A stretch of DNA of 64,000 nt, taken from positions 32,001-96,000 of the forward strand of contig CAVUHW010000022.1 in assembly GCA_963741205.1 (NCBI GenBank), in the 5' to 3' direction. The notes beneath the pieces are model-generated. The model did no database searches and was not told the origin of the DNA. It saw only the letters and a list, made by a program, of their open reading frames with translations. Numbering within the stretch: the first letter of the stretch is position 1; each line of letters begins with the position of its first letter. The stretch comes from Nitrospirota bacterium. Its GTDB lineage: Bacteria > Nitrospirota > UBA9217. The position numbers and the translations under genes are program-made. Positions 3,837 to 37,948 of the stretch are shown here, in pieces.

Positions 3837-4711
3837 CTATTCACTCCCTTCTTTGAATTTCACTTCATCGACTTTCTGGCCTTCGATCAACTGGACCTTT
3901 GAGTAATATTCCTTTGCAGGTACATGCGGCTCGGCAACGACCTTTTCTTCTTGCGTACTGCTTTCTTCTCCGGCGCGGGGCCCTTGCCGCTTAAAAACCT
4001 GACGAGCGACTGCACCGTGGCTCCCTTTGTGCCGATATTCTTGGTATCGCTGAAATTCCTGAGGGAGAGCTGGAGTTTCCCTTCCGCCGAGGCGAGGGCG
4101 AGCACTTCGGCCTCCTCGGGCGACACTTCGAGCGTGATCACGTCCACCTCGACGGGCTTTTCCTGCTTGCCTCTGATCTCCGTTTCCGTCCCGGTGGCGA
4201 GGACGGGGATGTTTTCGAGGACGGTCATGGTTACCGGCATGCATCGAATTTGCAGGCCTGAAGGTGGCGACGACGTCCACCCTGTTTCCCGGATGTATGA
4301 AGCCCGACACACCCTGCACCTTATCCACCTTCACGCCCATGGCCCGCTTGTTTTCGGATATCACGGCCGCAACTCCGCCTTTGGTGATGTCCGAGGGCGC
4401 CAGGCGGGATTCGAATATCGGCTCATCGGCCTTTATGGGGGTGATGACGACGCGCCCCGCAACCGTGGCTGGGTCTGTAAAGAAACCGATGTCAGGCTTC
4501 CCTTGAGGAATGGAACGGTCTTTACCATTTCCGGCTTTATGATCGTCCCCCAGTTCAGGTCAGTAACGGCCACGGCCACGTTCACGAGCTCCCCGCGCTG
4601 GCTTGCGAGCGCGACGGACCTGTCCTTGAGCCAACGGTAAACCAGAAAGCTCGTGGTGAGAGCGACCAACACGGTCAAGACGATAAGAATTATGGGTTTA
4701 TATCTTTTCAC
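3837..4711 (-). CDS. cpaB: Flp pilus assembly protein CpaB (frameshifted)
   Basis: N-terminal TM, SAF domain VAVAVTDL..G, KRAMGVKVDKVQGVSGFIHPGNRVDV, VLENIPVLA, ITLEVSPEEAE. Confidence 0.92.
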
Positions 4712-6734: not shown

Positions 6735-7685
6735 ATGTCGTCTATGCTTCAGGCAACGGATAAGATCTGGATGAACGGCTCCTTCGTCAAGTGGGACGAC
6801 GCCAGGGTGCACATCCTTACTCATTCGCTCCACTACGGGACCGCCGTGTTCGAAGGCATCCGCTGCTACAAGGCCGATTCCGGTTCCGCGGTGTTCCGGC
6901 TCCAGGAGCATGTTGACCGGCTCTTCGATTCCGCGCACATCCTGCAGATGGAGATGCCCTTCACCCGGGAGGCCGTGACCGAGGCGATCCTCGAGACGAT
7001 CCGCGTCAACAAGATCGACGCCTGCTATATCAGGCCGCTCGCGTATATCGGCTACGGCGCCATGGGGGTCTTTCCCAAGGAAAACCCGGTTGAGGTTTCG
7101 ATCGCGGTCTGGCCCTGGGGCAGCTACCTCGGAGACGAGGGCATCAAGAACGGCATCCGCGTGAAGATCTCGTCGTTTTCCCGGCCCCATGTGAACGCGA
7201 CCATGGTCCGCGCCAAGACCACGGCGAATTACGCGAACTCGCTCTTGGCCAAGCGCGAGGCGCTCAAGGACGGCTACGACGAGGCCATCCTGCTCGATAC
7301 CGACGGTTATGTTGCCGAGGGCAGCGGCGAGAACGTGTTCATGGTGCGCAAGGGCGTGATCAAGACCCCGCCGCTCACCTCGATCCTGGAAGGCGTTACG
7401 CGGGACACGGTCATGCAGCTCGCGGCGGAGCGCGGCATGAGGCTTGCCGAAGAGCGGTTCACGCGGGACGAACTGTATATCGCCGACGAGGCCTTCTTTA
7501 CCGGCACCGCGGCCGAGATCACGCCGATCCGCGAAGTGGACAATCGCGCCATAGGATCGGGCAAGCCGGGGCCGGTGACCAAGGAGCTGCAGACGGTATT
7601 TTTCGATATTGTTCACGGCCGAGACAGCAGGCATGCGGATTGGCTAACGCCGGTCCATGCGAAACAGCCGGCGATGAAGAAATAA
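6735..7685 (+). CDS. ilvE: Branched-chain amino acid aminotransferase
   Basis: HSLHYGTAVFEGIR, AEGSGENVF, ILEGVTR, ADEAFFTGTAAEITP. Confidence 0.97.
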   Translation: MSSMLQATDKIWMNGSFVKWDDARVHILTHSLHYGTAVFEGIRCYKADSGSAVFRLQEHVDRLFDSAHILQMEMPFTREAVTEAILETIRVNKIDACYIRPLAYIGYGAMGVFPKENPVEVSIAVWPWGSYLGDEGIKNGIRVKISSFSRPHVNATMVRAKTTANYANSLLAKREALKDGYDEAILLDTDGYVAEGSGENVFMVRKGVIKTPPLTSILEGVTRDTVMQLAAERGMRLAEERFTRDELYIADEAFFTGTAAEITPIREVDNRAIGSGKPGPVTKELQTVFFDIVHGRDSRHADWLTPVHAKQPAMKK

Positions 7686-7795
7686 GATATCCGCAGATCA
7701 CAGAGACATCCAGACTGACAGCCTGAGTGCTCTGCAAGCATCCAGCTTTTCTCCGTAGCGCTCTGTGAGATCTGTGGCAATAGGTTTTCACAAGT

Positions 7796-7880
7796 GCCGA
7801 AGTGGTGGAACTGGTAGACACGCACGTTTGAGGGGCGTGTGGGGCAACCCATGGGGGTTCGAGTCCCCCCTTCGGCACCA
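7796..7880 (+). tRNA. tRNA-Leu (GAG)
   Basis: GCCGAAG acceptor stem pairs with CTTCGGC followed by ACCA; D-loop TGGTAGAC; anticodon loop TTGAGGG; long variable arm; GTTCGAG T-loop. Confidence 0.96.
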
Positions 7881-8039
7881 TTTTTACCCCAGCTAGAAAT
7901 TGTCGTAGAAAGCGGGATGAACCATTTGCGAAACGTTGGATGAACTGTGTTCTGCAACAGGGTAACTGATATACCTTTATCTTTATTGAACACTCGACAC
8001 AGGCACGCGGCATTCCATCCCGTTTTCCTGACTCATCCA

Positions 8040-9648
8040 ATGGCCAAACTTCTCCCCATAATTCTGTTCTGGTTCTCCGTCGTTTTCTTTCCCGTGGCAG
8101 GCCTTGCCCAGCCTCCGCAGAACGCCAGCCTCGGGATCGTGTCCGCTCCGCTTGCCAACGTCCACGAAGAGCCGCTCCCCAAGTCCCGGCTTGAGACACA
8201 AGTGCTCATGGGAGACGAGGTGCGCATCCTGGAGAAGCAGGACAACCGCTACAGGATCTCGATCCCGAACCAGGGCGACCGGGAAGGCTGGATCCAGCAG
8301 GAAGCCGTGCAGATTCCGAAGGACAAGGGTCGCTTCTATCTTAACTCCGATCGTCCCTGGATCATGATCGCGGTGCCCAAGTCCGAGGCGCTGATACTTG
8401 ACAAGACCGGCGATCATAAAGTCCCCCTCTATGCCGGCACGCGTCTTCCGGTGCTCGAAACAATAAAGAATGGTTTCAAGGTCCAGTTTCCGGACCGGTC
8501 CGTCGCAATCATCGCCGGCGCCGATGTGATGCCGGTGAAGTCCTCGGATCCGGTCGTGAACAACACCAAGCCCGACGAGATCGCGAACACGGCAAAGCGC
8601 TTCCAGGGCGCCCCGTATCTCGCGGGAGGAATGACCGCCCAGGGCATCGACATGAACGGCCTCATCTCCGTCAGCTACCGCGTCCATGGAATCACGATCA
8701 ACACGGAGCGTATCGGACATCAAGGCACAGGGAGCGCGCGTATCGAAGAAAGACCTCGATCCCGGCGATATCCTGGTCTTCTCCGGGGAGGGCAGGGGCC
8801 TTTACGTAGGGGACGGCCGGTTCCTCCAGGTTGCGAAAAAAGGCAAGGTCCAGCTTGCCGGCGTCGCCGACCGGCGACATGCCAACTCACTCCAATATTG
8901 CCTTCGGATTCTCGGCGCCGGCCCTGACGAGAACAAGCGCACGGCCCAGATGGCCGCCGACGAGATCCTCCTCGCGCAGGCGCGGGTGACGCAACTCCCA
9001 ATCGGCAAACGCATAGCCTACTGGGCAGGCCGCTTCATCGGGACCCCTTACGACACCGACCCGCTCGGACTCTATGTTCGTACGAACCGCATCATAGCCG
9101 ATGAGAAGGTCGACTGCATGTACCATACATTCCGCTCTGTAGAACTTGCGCAAAGCGGTACGCCGGGCGAGGCCGTCGACCGGGCGCTCGATCTCCGCTT
9201 TACCTCCCGGGGAAAGCTCGCGGACGGCCTCGTCACCAACTACGATGAACGGTTCCAGTACGGCGAGGACATGGTCATGAGCGGCAAGTGGGGGAAGAAC
9301 ATTTCTGCCGAACTCGGCGCGATAAAAACGATTCCCGGCTCGCGGGGCAAGGACACGGTGGACATCCTTCCGAAAGAGGCCCTCCTGTCCAAGGCGCTCC
9401 AGAAAAAACTCCAGGACGGAGACATCGTCTACTGGGTCAAGGACCCGAAGAAGCGCGTAGTCGAGGAGATCGTGGCCCACCTGTCCATCGTGCAGGTCAA
9501 ATCCGGCACACCCTATCTCATCCATGCCTCGGGGAGCAAGAACCAATGGGGCACTCCGAACGGCGGCGTGGTCAAAGAGGTCCCCTTCGCCGAGTACGTG
9601 AAGAACATGAAGTTCATCGGCGCCTTCGTGACACGCTTCGAGCAGTAG
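8040..9648 (+). CDS. Secreted SH3b + NlpC/P60-like + DUF1460 (amidase-like) peptidoglycan hydrolase (frameshift near 8720)
   Basis: Signal peptide; SH3b ETQVLMGDEVRIL...GWI; AKRFQGAPYLAGG..GID; second domain FIGTPY...VDCMYH...H...LIHAS. Confidence 0.8.
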
Positions 9649-11478: not shown

Positions 11479-11671
11479 TTGATCCGTGAGGGCGTTCGTT
11501 CTCAGAGTGAAATCTCTTTGTGGCATAACGTTGTTGCCGTCTGCTCATTCTGCTCCTCGTACACTTTTTTCAGTTTGACATTTCCGCAACTTCTCTGCTA
11601 TTCTCTGCTGGAAATCACTGTTCCCACGCGATAACTCTGAACTCTGAACTCAGAACTATCGAAGGATTCTT

Positions 11672-12723
11672 ATGCTTTCCAAAGTCATCAGCTCCGCGGT
11701 CCTTGGCATCGACGCCTACCCTGTAGAAGTCGAAGTCGACGTCGCGAGCAGGGGCCTTCCCTTTCTTCGCCACCGTGGGCCTGCCCGACGCCGCCGTCAA
11801 AGAGAGCAAGGAGCGCGTGCGCGCCGCGCTCAAGAACACGGGCTTCGATTTCCCCCTGAAGCAGGTCGTCGTGAACCTTGCGCCGGCGGACATCAAGAAG
11901 GAAGGCTCCGCCTTCGACCTGCCGATTGCGATCGGCATGCTGATCGCGGAGGGGATCATCACCAGGAGCAGGCGTCCGGCTTCCTCATCGTGGGCGAGCT
12001 CTCGCTCGACGGCCGCGTCAAGCCCGTGCGCGGCGCGCTTTCGATGGCCGTGCTCGCGAAAAAGGCCGGGATACCGGGGCATGGTGGTTCCGGCAGACAA
12101 CGCGCAGGAGGCGGCCGTCGTCGAGTCGGTGAGGATCTTCGGCATGCAGACCCTGCCGCAGGTCGTGGAGTTTCTCTTTGGCCATGCTCCCCGCCGAGCC
12201 GGTTCGCGTCGATGTCCGGGACGCCTTTGAGACCTACTCCGCGTACCAGGAAGACTTCTCCGAGGTAAGAGGGCAGGAGCATGCGAAGCGCGCCATCGAG
12301 GTCGCCGCTGCCGGCGGCCACAACATCATCATGATCGGCCCTCCGGGCTCGGGCAAGACCATGCTCGCGCGCCGGCTTCCCTCCGTCCTTCCCCAGATGA
12401 GCTTCGACGAGTCCATCGAGACGACGAAGATCCACAGCGTCATGGGGCTTCTCCGTCAGGGCCAGCCTCTCATCGCGACGAGACCGTTTCGGAGCCCGCA
12501 CCACACCATTTCGGATGCGGGCCTGATAGGCGGCGGACAGGTCCCAAAGCCGGGCGAGGTGAGCCTGTCGCACAACGGGGTGCTCTTCCTGGACGAGCTC
12601 CCGGAGTTCAAAAGAAACGTGCTCGAGGCGCTCCGGCAGCCGCTCGAAGACGGCCAGGTCACAATATCGCGCGCCGTGACCTCGCTCACCTATCCCGCCT
12701 CACTCATGCTCGTCGCCGCCATG
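11672..12723 (+). CDS. comM: ComM/YifB Mg-chelatase-like AAA+ ATPase, N-terminal part (interrupted by insertion)
   Basis: [50 protein letters not shown]. Homology stops exactly at LVAAM. Confidence 0.95.
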
Positions 12724-14490: not shown

Positions 14491-15057
14491 AGATATGTCG
14501 AGGCTGAATATTACCAAGAAGGCGCGAAAGACAAAAAAGATCCTGATGATAGCAGGTCATGGTGCTCGCAGCGTGTCCAGCAGCGCGAAGGTGAACGATG
14601 AAGTCCTTGATCAGGTGTGATATTGCTTGCTTCCGGCATAATATTCTCCTCTCCGATTTTTAGCGCCCTAAGCGTGAAACTGTTCGGGCTTTTGCCGGAG
14701 ATGATACGCCGGAATCAGGAGAAGATCGTGCTGCGAAAGAGGATTTTGACTATGTGGAGACCGGGTCGCTTGCGACAAAGGGCTTTCGAAAATAGGTAAA
14801 GGATGACAGAAGAGCCTGCTCTACGGGCAGGGGACGAAGGCATATGGACGCGATTTTCGACACTGACGTATATCTGCTTGATTGTGGGGCGCGAGAACCC
14901 TACGATTATTCAGGACAAAACTTCCCGTGTCGCAAGCGGCTCGATGAAAAATGTCGAAAATCGGTTTTCGATAAACGTGCAGTGCTTTAACTACTTTGTA
15001 TTAAAAAAAATCCAGATGGGCATATCTGCCCACCTGGAAAAGTGTAATGATTTTAAC

Positions 15058-15085
15058 GGTTCCCAGAATATTCATTCTGAGAAAT
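15058..15085. other. dif-like recombination site A
   Basis: ggttcccagaa-tattca-ttctgagaaat (11-6-11 inverted arms). Confidence 0.6.
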
Positions 15086-15162
15086 GGAGATTTAAAAAAA
15101 AAGACGGCGCACCGGTAACAGACCCGATAAGCGGCCTTCTCGCAGATTCAAGCGCACAAGCC

Positions 15163-15684
15163 CTACTTCGGAACGTCCGTCGCTTTCGATTTCACCGTGT
15201 AGTCTATGCCCACGTCGGATGCCTGTTTTTGCCTTACCACTTTAATGAATCCATATCCCAGGCCGACATGACAACTGTTGCAGCTCGCAATAACCGCGTT
15301 GTATTTCCTATCGAAGGCCTTAAAATCCTGGGCCATGATCGCCTTGTTCACCGGATCGAAGGTATTCTTGTAAAAATTTTCCCATGCAGGGTATTAAGCC
15401 GTTTTCGTGAACTTTGCAGGGTTCATAGCCGCATTCATATACTTTGACATATACGCTGCGAGACCCCAATTGCCGCCCTGGGCTGCGGAAAACATATCCT
15501 GGAAACGGTCGCCGACTTCACGCATCGGTACGGCGAATTTCGGTATCGCATTCTTTACCGCATCGATCTGCTTCTGCAAATCATCCTGCTTTGGCATTTG
15601 AATTTTCACGGCCTGGACGGCATTCATGCCGATAAACGACAACACCCCTGCCATAGCAATAAAGATGACGACTTTTCTCAGCAT
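15163..15684 (-). CDS. Periplasmic monoheme cytochrome c (helical, C-terminal CxxCH; frameshifted)
   Basis: Signal peptide MLRKVVIFIAMAG; CNSCH near the C-terminus. Confidence 0.75.
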
Positions 15685-15792
15685 AGTGGAACTCCTTTCA
15701 AAACTGATTTTAAGTTCGACTGTCCCGCGCTTCACTGCAAAACCTCAATCCTTCAACTTGTTTCATCATCACCTCCTTGTCTGAAGCAGCGT

Positions 15793-16631
15793 CTATTTTT
15801 TTTCCTCATGGGGGCCAAAGGTGTACTGATACGCAAGGTAAGCCGAGACCCGGTTATCACCATGGATGTCGCTTCCGACGGAGAAAAGCACGTGGTGGGC
15901 GTCGGTGACATTCACAATCGCACCCACATTGTAACCGAGACGGGATTTTGCGTCATCCGCATCCTTGGTCTGCGTAATAATTCTGCGCTGATCGTCAGCA
16001 GCTCGGACATTGCACGCTGCACTTGCCAGCCGAAAAACCAGTAGTCCTTGTTGCCTTCACCTGGATTTCGCCAGTAACCGCCGCCGCCGTAGGTTTGCCA
16101 CGGGCCCCAGGCCTTCTGCAGCCAGAGAGGAATAAAAATCCTCGTGTGTCCCGCGCCCAACCCCTTATCGCTGTCGCCGGTAGGCAATGTCACGATGGGG
16201 AAAGTCCCCACCATGAAGTGAGCATCCTCATCGTTTATGAAACGATACTTGATCCCCACCTCCGTGTCGCCGTAGCCGCGCTGCGTGGGCTCCCCCTCCG
16301 GCTTGTCGTATACAAACGGCGTGATAAGATGGAGCATGACATTGGGTACGACTCCATAGTTAAGCTCAAAATGCGGGGCGGTGCCGGAGGTCGCGTCCTT
16401 GTCCTTCGCGTACTGTGTGGCGACGTAAAACTCTCCATGCTTGTAATCCACGGGCTCCGGGTCGTCGGTAACAAAAGGCGGTCCGGCCCAGGTCTTGCCG
16501 ATGCCGATACCCATGACACACAAAATTGCTGCGAGGAGCGCTGCCAAGCGAGGCAGGAGCGCGGAGAACTGAATAATACTACCCTTTCCGGTCAAATATG
16601 AGATTCTACGACGGGAACAATCTATTTGCAT
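15793..16631 (-). CDS. Outer-membrane beta-barrel, putative MetA-pathway/transporter family (frameshifted)
   Basis: AGPPFVTDDPEP, ELNYG, GYGDTEVGIKYRF, LPTGD..KGLG, PLWLQK. Confidence 0.8.
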
Positions 16632-16663
16632 ATTTACTCCTTTTATTTTGAATTTATTAAGCA

Positions 16664-16691
16664 AGTTTCCAGAATACTCATTATGGGAAAT
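16664..16691. other. dif-like recombination site B
   Basis: agtttccagaa-tactca-ttatgggaaat. The right arm is 9/11 identical to the E. coli XerD arm ttatgttaaat. Confidence 0.7.
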
Positions 16692-17400
16692 GGAGATTTC
16701 AAAGACAAAACACCTGACCCCAGAAGCCCAGGTTATCGTCATCCACCTGGAATCACCGGGTCAACATTGAAACCACCAAGCGCCGACATATTTCGTCGCT
16801 CAAAAAAAGGACGCTCATTCGCAGCAATCGATATATTGTTGTAGATATCATATATATTCACGCCTTTGGAAGCATCCTTCTAACCCTCATGAAAATATGG
16901 ATTAGTATAATGAATCCATAGTCGCGGGTCAATCGAAAACAATGGAAAATCCATTATTCTTTTTGCCGCCTTTTCCAGCGATGAGGAGTTCTGTAAACTG
17001 CGGCACAAAACGCTGCGAGAACGAGGAGCTCGAGACCAATCTCCCTGTGGGGGATGGCTCAGCTGCCGCATTCTACATGTTTCAACCCGTATTTCGCAAT
17101 ATTCCAATCGAATGCAACGTGACCTTGTAGGTGATTTCGATAAGTGCGAAGAGGTTAAGAGTTAACAAATTCCGGTTAAACTATTCGTTCAAACTTCTAT
17201 CGGAACTATTGAATGACGGGGAAACCAGTTTATCGACAAATTACCCGGAGGGTAGATAACATTTTCGAAAAAGTGAAAAGCGTTCGAAATAAGAAAGCAT
17301 CATAGCCAACTTCTTGTCAGACGATGCACCGAAAGTCAACGTGCTCTCTGCCCGTAGCGCGGCTTTTGTCTGACTTCCGCGGGATTACCTTATTGCCCTC

Positions 17401-17792
17401 TCAAGGAATTTTCTTATAAACTGCGTTCTTCGTTTTGCAGGGTTTTATCCCATTGCTCAGCCAAGTCGAGTAACTGTTCCGGATCCCGATCCATGGCTGC
17501 TCCCAAGCGCTCGAACGACATCCCGTTGTAGGACGGTTTTGAAATACGCAGCCGGCCAAGTAGTATCGTCCGGGCACTCGAAAGGCACGTACCCGAGAAA
17601 TGCGATAATCTTCGGGATGTGCACCAAGTCCGGCTCGTTCCCGCGCTCCCAGTCCGTATACTGTCGCCTCCGAAACGCCGGTACTTTCTGCAACCTCCCG
17701 CTTGTATAGTCCCAGGTCCATTCGGTGCTTCCGAACGTGCTCGCCGATGGTTTTGGATTCTCAGCGGCTATAGTTGGTCGAGGAACAGCCAT
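17401..17792 (-). CDS. Tandem XRE-family HTH protein (frameshifted)
   Basis: Reconstructed: ENPKTIGEHVRKHRMDLGLYKREVAESTGVSEATVY.WERGNEP...IPKIIAFLGYVP, then a second HTH-like segment. Confidence 0.75.
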
Positions 17793-18306
17793 GTTGAATA
17801 AGGGTACTTTGCAAACCTCACTGAACCCCTGCAAGTGCGGAAACTGGGGAGATCCGCAGCACCAGTGTCAATGCACACCTCACCAGGTGCAGACCTACCG
17901 GTCGCGCGTCTCCGGCCCGCTCATGGACAGGATCGATATCCACATTGAAGTTCCCGCGATAAAGTTCGACGAAATCTCGTCGGACAAACCCGCCGAACCA
18001 TCGGATGCGATCCGCGAGCGGGTGACGAAAGCGCGGGCAATACAATATGCCCGCTTCATGAACGACGGCATCTACGCCAACGCGCACATGAAGCCGAGGC
18101 ATATCCGGAAGTACTGCAAGATAGACGAAGACTCACTGAGGCTCATGGAAACGGCCATGAACCGGCTGGGTCTTTCGGCCCGGGCGTATAACCGCATCCT
18201 CAAAGTGGCGCGAACGATCGCGGATATCGAGAGCAGCCAGAGGATCGCGACCGAACACATTTCGGAAGCGATTCAGTACCGCAGTCTGGACAGAAGGATG
18301 AGCTGA
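17791..18306 (+). CDS. comM: ComM C-terminal part with an element-supplied start codon
   Basis: NPCKCG...CQCTP...YRSRVSGPLMDRIDIH...LSARAYNRILKVARTIAD...EAIQYR; gagga RBS and ATG at 17791. Confidence 0.93.
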   Translation: MLNKGTLQTSLNPCKCGNWGDPQHQCQCTPHQVQTYRSRVSGPLMDRIDIHIEVPAIKFDEISSDKPAEPSDAIRERVTKARAIQYARFMNDGIYANAHMKPRHIRKYCKIDEDSLRLMETAMNRLGLSARAYNRILKVARTIADIESSQRIATEHISEAIQYRSLDRRMS

Positions 18307-37705: not shown

Positions 37706-37855
37706 GATATGCCTGTTGGAAGTGGGCGACTAGCTACAATTAGTAATGCACCGCAAACATCAACGCTACATATGGTTCTCTGTTTGCTTCCTGAATTAAA
37801 AAAGAAATTCCAGATGGGTGTCTATGCCCACCTGGAAAAGTGTAATGATTTTAAT

Positions 37856-37883
37856 AGTTCCAAAAATACTCATTCTGAGAACT
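37856..37883. other. dif-like recombination site C
   Basis: agttccaaaaa-tactca-ttctgagaact, preceded by the same hairpin-bearing flank as site A. Confidence 0.6.
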
Positions 37884-37948
37884 CGTGTCTACAAAAAGGG
37901 CTGGACGACCAGCCCGTCATGCCGTTTGACTATAGACCTGAACTCCGA

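Follow-up and report, generated by a model that had tools for sequence, protein, structure and literature searches.

The standard example of a platform for capturing and expressing promoterless gene cassettes is so far the integron, whose attC sites are structured and 57–141 nt long. An Xer-family enzyme encoded beside a dif-like site is known from XerS/difSL and XerH/difH, where the site is the single chromosomal dimer-resolution site. Among cassettes with dif-like sites at their ends, to our knowledge only the pdif modules have been studied well, and how they move is still not completely explained. Acinetobacter pdif modules are described as having 28-bp dif-like sites in an 11-6-11 layout, the spacers being the same or almost the same; the sites flanking standard modules are inversely oriented, with C and D types alternating (PMC13141974). 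The modules are not known to have a dedicated recombinase. The present analysis concerns two dif-like sites, A and B, enclosing two genes in a 64,000-nt stretch (the window) of contig CAVUHW010000022.1 from a Nitrospirota bacterium (assembly GCA_963741205.1, positions 32,001 to 96,000). Most probably, sites A and B delimit a cassette of two captured genes, which belongs to a gene-capture platform that is now broken. No description of such a system in Nitrospirota was found in those parts of the literature that our search reached.

Site A (15058-15085) reads ggttcccagaatattcattctgagaaat and site B (16664-16691) reads agtttccagaatactcattatgggaaat; the two are co-oriented and each is followed by GGAGATTT (ggagattt). 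Letters, orientation and trailing bases are exactly as in an earlier note on this DNA, which had reported 28-bp direct dif-like repeats bounding a gene module, and the direct repeats do enclose the two genes. A repeat finder extends the A/B repeat to 47 nt at 83% identity (15059-15105 / 16665-16711). The same note had named equal frequency in shuffled sequence as grounds for doubt; a 33-nt pattern spanning both sites matched twice in the window and not once in 100 shuffles. The pattern search of the window also gave a third copy, site C (core match 37861-37881), in the same orientation as A and B. Throughout, the minus strand is used as the reference orientation, this being the direction of the enclosed genes; in it the consensus of the site is TTCYCAGAATGAGTATTCTGGGAAC, an imperfect palindrome with about 13 conserved bases on one side. 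Genomes, contigs and loci are cited by our handles (G, C and L). The features, in minus-strand order, are as follows.

16904-16932, minus strand: platform promoter, sigma-70-like TTGACC-17-TATACT (10/12 matches), facing site B.
16704-16903, minus strand: L-alpha leader, about 200 nt, non-coding, from the promoter to site B.
16664-16703, minus strand: site B, with palindrome 16666-16689 (TTCCCATAATGAGTATTCTGGAAA; G000:C22:48666-48689) and left flank ...gaaatctccat (16690-16703).
15808-16631, minus strand: cassette gene 1, outer-membrane-barrel-like, with a frameshift near 15984; 3' end approximate.
15163-15684, minus strand: cassette gene 2, class II cytochrome c'-like, with an in-frame TAA at 15394-15396 and its CxxCH downstream of that stop.
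15098-15162, minus strand: 3' end of the cassette, rich in hairpins; a 52-nt segment upstream of site A has a folding energy of -18.8 kcal/mol, and a T-run comes after it.
15058-15097, minus strand: site A, with palindrome 15060-15083 (TTCTCAGAATGAATATTCTGGGAA; G000:C22:47060-47083) and left flank ...taaatctccat (15084-15097).
15003-15059, minus strand: R-alpha tail, ccgttaaaatcattacactttt, then an intrinsic terminator (12-bp stem 15038-15011, T8).
14624-15002, minus strand: spacer, conserved and non-coding, that separates R-alpha from the recombinase gene.
14492-14623, minus strand: remnant of an Xer-family tyrosine recombinase gene, N-terminal 44 residues only.
37800-37895, minus strand (placed last, away from the array): site C, with palindrome 37858-37881, an R-alpha tail and terminator, and neither spacer nor recombinase.

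Site B is the first site of the array, the cassette beginning past it, and site A is the terminal, recombinase-proximal one; the array holds a single cassette made up of the barrel gene and the cytochrome c' gene. The barrel gene matches Pfam Phenol_MetA_deg only below the cut-off (E 0.001, 19.6 bits, cut-off 22) and aligns to a 247-amino-acid homologue in frame -3 and then in frame -2, with the switch near 15984. The cytochrome gene aligns in one frame, yet the list of open reading frames (ORFs) breaks it at 15394, which places an in-frame TAA at 15394-15396. On contig C6 it has a 173-amino-acid paralogue with CNSCH close to the C-terminus, which matches Cytochrom_C_2 weakly (E 4.5e-4, 21.6 bits, cut-off 26.5). 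Parts of the stretch were found in two low-share soil DNA runs, used as assembled contigs at a depth below 5, and in no RNA run listed; the soil contigs have C rather than A at 15396 and one extra A after 15975 in the barrel gene, which suggests that relatives carry intact versions of both cargo genes. The recombinase remnant aligns by tblastn to residues 6-49 of the G041 recombinase at 59% identity, with no longer ORF at that place. Judged from its sequence, the window array is a fossil, its recombinase cut to 44 amino acids and both of its cargo genes interrupted.

The elements surrounding the cassette recur elsewhere. Promoter hexamers identical to those of the window stand upstream of the first sites in C4, G003:C102, L134, L135 and L136. 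The L-alpha leader shares 71% identity with C4:16452-16718 and 69% with G003:C102:3883-4087, and inspection of the alignment by eye found no reading frame common to the three copies. L-alpha spans about 200-330 nt (window 16704-16903, C4:16473-16718, G003:C102:3700-4062) and contains the conserved blocks GCTGCGAA, GCGACGAAAT and GGCGCTTG. At gathering thresholds, Rfam reported only a tRNA in the window, with no match at the sites or the leader. Site C sits behind a 375-amino-acid lipoprotein gene and that gene's hairpin; together with its C5 paralogue it forms a unit whose left boundary, a further breakpoint at a site, falls in a degenerate site.

Behind R-alpha, alignable copies share one order: a conserved, non-coding, repeat-rich spacer of about 330 nt and then a co-oriented gene for a tyrosine recombinase of about 300 amino acids, which in intact copies is separated from the terminal site by about 0.45 kb. 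Intact copies of the gene are those of G041, G003:C102 (299-amino-acid product, P0007), L140, the contig of L135 (P0003) and G131; the G041 and G131 copies have no internal stop, and the single TGA of the G003 copy lies at the 3' end of the gene. A 305-amino-acid product carries the Pfam domains Phage_int_SAM_1 (residues 10-91) and Phage_integrase (118-288), and HxxR and a C-terminal RY were recognized by eye. It fits the simple Xer-like type, with SAM-like core-binding and catalytic domains, a length of about 300 amino acids and no arm-binding domain. Its top family models are XerC, XerD and XerA, all far under their cut-offs, and its nearest solved relatives are XerD (1a0p) and XerA (5hxy). 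A large protein collection contained 127 homologues at E <=1e-30, all generically named. A recombinase of 53% identity (L106, G131) is found in an identical layout with an altered yet palindromic site, TGCCCATAATGCGTATTATAGGAA, of which G131 has one copy. The earlier note had proposed a tyrosine recombinase, supplied in trans. The first part is upheld by the linkage of an Xer-family gene to the site; action in trans need not be assumed, given a dedicated gene about 0.45 kb from the terminal site and, in the window, its 44-amino-acid remnant at 14623-14492. The acting enzyme is most likely this dedicated recombinase encoded in cis.

The spacer itself contains a 20-bp palindrome, GTCGAAAA-N4-TTTTCGA(C/T), found at 14953-14972 in the window and in homologous spacers (L006, L106 and others), as well as an inverted pair, GCCGCTTGCGACA / TGTCGCAAGCGAC; both are absent from the rest of the genome and may be control sites of the recombinase gene. 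A LexA-like host box was considered for the palindrome and rejected, since GTCGAAAA-N4-TTTTCGAC occurs only in recombinase leaders and in one chance-like match with two mismatches, and no host regulon was seen. Past the stop codon of the recombinase gene, no conserved element end was found among the five copies compared. The genes accompanying the recombinase in G041 and G003 (about 290 and 178 amino acids) had no homologues in the genome to which the window belongs. The G041 copy lies in a 7.6-kb island that also encodes, at L059:3491-7090 (G041:C3), a 1199-amino-acid reverse transcriptase-Cas1 fusion (Pfam RVT_1 and Cas_Cas1); the island edges showed no convincing direct repeats, only a short ATGAGTAT match at the right junction.

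Evidence for cassette movement comes from junctions. In G003:C102 an L-alpha-like leader (3883-4087) meets R-alpha, spacer and recombinase gene (4048-4609) at a single site (4063-4086), and in the window the module stands between the flanks homologous to these two, at a distance of 1.6 kb. L132 runs from leader to site to R-alpha; L146 has an identical 75-nt left flank and palindrome, followed by a 1.8-kb cassette, a site and R-alpha. Likewise, L135 consists of promoter, site and R-alpha, and L134 has a homologous promoter, then site and gene. The earlier note had asked whether the sites sit at synteny breakpoints; in other genomes the site stands at junctions at which homologous left and right flanks are recombined. 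Its expectation of empty single-site forms is borne out to the extent of these three empty/occupied pairs, which are diverged and none of them allelic.

Cassettes have also been found in more than one place. One encoding a patatin (Pfam Patatin) occurs at two G001 loci with 93.4% identity, the homology setting in 2 nt ahead of site 1 and stopping 13 nt past site 2; G014 and L130 have it as well, there behind another left flank. Two genera share a cytidylate-kinase-like cassette at 89.9% identity; genomes of one genus agree at about 65-83% in their housekeeping DNA. C35 lacks 61 nt that L138 has, and the deletion ends at palindrome position 8|9, a half-site breakpoint where an 8-bp overlap region would be cut.

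The relation of the sites to the chromosomal dif was examined by scanning the own genome with the E. coli dif, which gave one outstanding match, TTGTCTGATAA-TGTATA-TTATGTCAAAT, at C11:1798-1825. This sequence is present in 49 of the 64 genomes of the family, in single copy in 47 of these (control 0), and is likely the true chromosomal dif. Read in the minus orientation, sites A and B each agree with this dif in 18 of 28 positions (left arm, centre and right arm 7/5/6 in A and 7/4/7 in B), a level reached by 79 of 8,527,904 genomic 28-mers. The term "dif-like" used earlier therefore holds beyond chance, and a likeness of this degree fits an Xer-family enzyme. That the site is itself the chromosomal dif was rejected, with eight copies in the own genome, occurrence in 18/301 genomes and the real dif candidate at C11:1798. 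The layout of an Xer-family gene by a dif-like site is shared with XerS/difSL, XerH/difH and Xer-exploiting integrative elements; unlike in XerS/difSL and XerH/difH, the genuine dif is here elsewhere, and the present site is multi-copy and bounds cassettes.

The same resemblance is what an explanation by the host enzymes, which the earlier note had put first, would build on. XerC and XerD, acting in trans, would here mobilize the modules between dif-like sites in the manner of Acinetobacter pdif, with the neighbouring recombinase incidental. The 11-6-11 geometry and the 18/28 agreement with the family's own dif are in its favour, and the host genes are at hand: XerD is encoded on C34 (380.8 bits, cut-off 329.6) and a split XerC-like gene lies on C45. 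The central six bases, however, are one to two off dif in A and B, and the consensus TGAGTA is two off TGTATA. The palindrome co-varies with the neighbouring recombinase in L106, and the site is absent from 46/64 family genomes, whereas the true dif is present in 49/64. Gene modules between 28-bp dif-like sites in an 11-6-11 layout are common to this locus and to the pdif modules. The sites here are nevertheless direct, chromosomal, in Nitrospirota, and accompanied by an adjacent Xer-family gene and a platform promoter; the match to pdif drawn in the earlier note fails, since pdif sites are inverse (PMC13141974) and every array examined here is direct. On balance, movement by host XerCD is improbable.

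Beyond the window, the site has a narrow distribution. The own genome (4.27 Mb, 50 contigs) contains eight copies with at most two mismatches to a 21-nt core. A 24-mer with at most three mismatches was found in 11 of 41 related genomes, all of one family (reversed control 0), and a 20-mer with at most one mismatch in 18/301 genomes of the phylum, comprising 17/63 in the family versus 0/237 in other families (reversed-pattern control 0); the site is absent from 46 of the 64 family genomes. Seventy-seven unique copies were pooled from the own genome, fetched loci and 22 metagenome contigs. Conservation among them runs from position -13 to +25 with the flanks beyond not conserved, and only the flank values are unbiased because the inner 24 positions had been selected for. 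Three types of left flank were seen: the TTGACC-17-TATACT promoter with between 10 and about 330 nt of leader, a second promoter-like TTTACA-17-TACTAAAAT, and the terminal hairpin of a preceding gene followed by GTAGAC. Two or three sites each were found in multi-site loci, namely 7/22 metagenome contigs, 6/10 fetched regions and the G014 patatin locus (L022). In all 14 examined, the sites lie on one strand and are direct, and five metagenome arrays terminate in R-alpha. A tandem duplication of about 3.8 kb was seen at G218:C1:150508 and 154287 (L058), each copy terminating in a site and an R-alpha-like tail, and a PAS/LuxR-type regulator gene stands behind one of the two.

A dispersed palindrome of this kind might be a selfish or structural repeat, of the type of repetitive extragenic palindromes, miniature inverted-repeat transposable elements or integron attC sites, and be unconnected with the Xer-like recombinase. 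The palindrome is imperfect and often has GTAG(AC) in front, and integron integrases are present in 32/64 family genomes, among them a classical one in the own genome (C18:131982-133454, L151; 490 amino acids; TIGR02249 378 bits, cut-off 265). The site occupies at most nine places per genome, no inverted pairs were seen in the loci examined, and inspection found no attC-like R''/L''...L'/R' structure. Integron integrases also show no positive association with the site, occurring in 7/18 site-positive versus 25/46 site-negative genomes, and the C18 contig is without any site. We consider this explanation very improbable.

The comparison with integrons is one of analogous function. In both, a tyrosine recombinase gene adjoins the primary site, a promoter directed outward points at the place of insertion, and co-oriented arrays of mostly one-gene cassettes, each closing in a recombination site, carry diverse accessory cargo; "empty" platforms and arrays lacking a recombinase occur in both as well. 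A platform of promoter, primary site and recombinase gene with a co-oriented array is present here in another gene order: the recombinase gene is found downstream, pointing the same way as the array and shielded from it by a terminator, whereas that of integrons is divergent. The adjacent recombinase is not IntI, scoring 61.7 bits on the integron-integrase model TIGR02249 against a cut-off of 265, and the true IntI of the own genome, on C18, lies far from any site; in the family, true integron integrases do not co-occur with the sites. Unlike attC, the sites are near-identical simple palindromes of 24-28 bp (a 24-nt core and a 13-nt flank), as judged by inspection.

Several observations weigh against a capture platform. 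No recombination product was seen, neither a circle junction nor a pair of alleles from the same strain; the circle junction of about 1.6 kb anticipated in the earlier note was not seen in the low-share soil contigs, which as short pieces showed no joint between sites A and B and one unrelated 84-nt replacement. Partners in the empty/occupied comparisons are diverged (69-74%) or unlike in the right flank (L132 versus L146), and for these reasons none of the pairs is a simple insertion allele. No orthologous empty alleles were found among same-genus genomes, which are too far diverged for this (65-83% identical at the DNA level) and weakly syntenic around the window. A paralogue of the module on C6 (88.7% over 1.9 kb) has the terminal site and lacks the upstream one, its homology to the window beginning about 25 nt after site B and hence outside the site; G001 has a barrel homologue with no site nearby. 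Module genes lacking sites in relatives, which had been named earlier as a sign against the idea, are in this measure present. The enzyme is rare, having been found in 6/64 family genomes, which are also 6/401 of the phylum, and intact in three of them, and many of the 18 genomes that have the site are without it (G001, G011, G002). The G041 site lies in the interior of a 7.6-kb island that is inserted between xseA and ymdB, with no second copy. Within an array, about 11 bases left of the palindrome are the same in both sites of the window, L140 and L147, nearly so in L136, and in sites 1 and 3 of L138; such identity is not what one would predict from a simple crossover within the palindrome. 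These left-flank bases vary between arrays, and L146 and the patatin cassette are exceptions within an array. Finally, the loci were gathered by searching for the motif itself, so that array counts are biased toward motif-rich places.

Other such observations bear on where the sites stand, and fit the main rival view, that the palindrome is cis-regulatory, an operator over the transcription start or an RNA hairpin in the 5' untranslated region. It would belong to a portable expression module that fronts accessory genes and, upstream of the recombinase gene, a small terminator-ended RNA; mosaic flanks would then reflect homologous recombination or horizontal transfer rather than site-specific recombination at the palindrome. 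The earlier note had taken fixed promoter positions as the mark of an operator. The position is indeed promoter-proximal in 40/77 sites, where a Shine-Dalgarno sequence and start codon follow at a median of 19.5 nt, and orientation to the downstream gene is constant; 19/77 sites are instead followed by the R-alpha tail, and 18/77 by neither gene start nor R-alpha according to a heuristic that misses some genes. The upstream flank contains a -35-like TTGTAG or TTGAAA 17 nt before GAGTAT, and a promoter-like TTGTCT-17-CATAAT overlaps site B. In L-beta and short-leader contexts a near-consensus promoter 10-40 nt upstream would have the palindrome transcribed, and site and R-alpha together are built like a small RNA: first a 5' hairpin, then an AU-rich stretch, then a terminator. 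At position 4 the common T makes a G-U wobble with G on the sense strand only. Retention of sites in genomes that lack the recombinase would suit this explanation as well as host XerCD.

A regulatory role is nonetheless an unlikely account of the whole. The cargo genes beside the sites have unrelated functions (patatin, pilin-like, NosL, DsrC, lactonase-like, fn3/PQQ lipoprotein), unlike a regulon, and no candidate regulator was found. Gene-less terminal sites are common, including the 19 at R-alpha and some of the 18 others. In place of coherent targets and a site evolving in place, long homologous flank blocks stop at the site. Left unexplained are arrays that terminate beside a tyrosine recombinase gene, identical left flanks joined to different right flanks exactly at the palindrome, a cassette duplicated with both bounding sites, and the resemblance to dif.

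With the observed anatomy, distribution, mosaic junctions and recombinase linkage set against these points, we give a probability of roughly 0.57 to an integron-like capture platform with a dedicated Xer-like recombinase, present in one Nitrospirota family and fossilized in the window. An intact platform has the order outward promoter TTGACC-17-TATACT with or without a leader, site, R-alpha with terminator, 330-nt spacer and recombinase gene of about 300 codons, its site being one dif-like imperfect palindrome of 24-28 bp with about 13 conserved bases ahead of it. A cassette is made up of a single gene or of two, which bring their own ribosome-binding site, about 15-25 nt past the site, and usually a 3' hairpin of their own; cassettes lie between promoter and terminal site, each bounded by a direct site. 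The recombinase would exchange strands within the central bases of the palindrome, inserting a circular one-site cassette at the platform site or excising it from there, and the platform promoter would then transcribe into the inserted cassette. The fuller claim is about as likely as not: that this is an undescribed form of integron-like capture, with a dedicated Xer-family recombinase, a double-stranded 28-bp dif-like site at each cassette boundary, an outward promoter and an insulating terminator, and with an origin from Xer/dif independent of that of integrons.

Other parts of the window have their own history. At 17429-18306 lies a 3' fragment of comM (Mg_chelatase and Mg_chelatase_C) whose 5' two-thirds are absent and whose DNA homology to an intact relative begins at 17429; frameshifted ORFs resembling helix-turn-helix proteins run antisense to it (17401-17834). 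For the comM-targeting element proposed in the earlier note, the check covered the 3' comM fragment, which is confirmed. Positions 7000-9648 and 11633-12723 are 93-96% identical to contig C44 of the own assembly, reflecting either duplication or strain heterogeneity in the bin. The segment 39618-41000 is 92-95% identical to G001:C1 and G011:C2; since the housekeeping DNA of G001 and G011 is only about 65-83% identical, this level suggests recent horizontal transfer.

As a fossil, the window's own copy carries little functional weight; what matters is the system of which it would be a relic. If the reading is true, this would be a second capture platform, assembled independently from an Xer-like enzyme and a simple 28-bp site, and cassette capture would have evolved more than once from the toolkit of chromosome dimer resolution. 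It would offer a compact pair of recombinase and site for experiments, and part of the flux of accessory genes in uncultured Nitrospirota would be explained.

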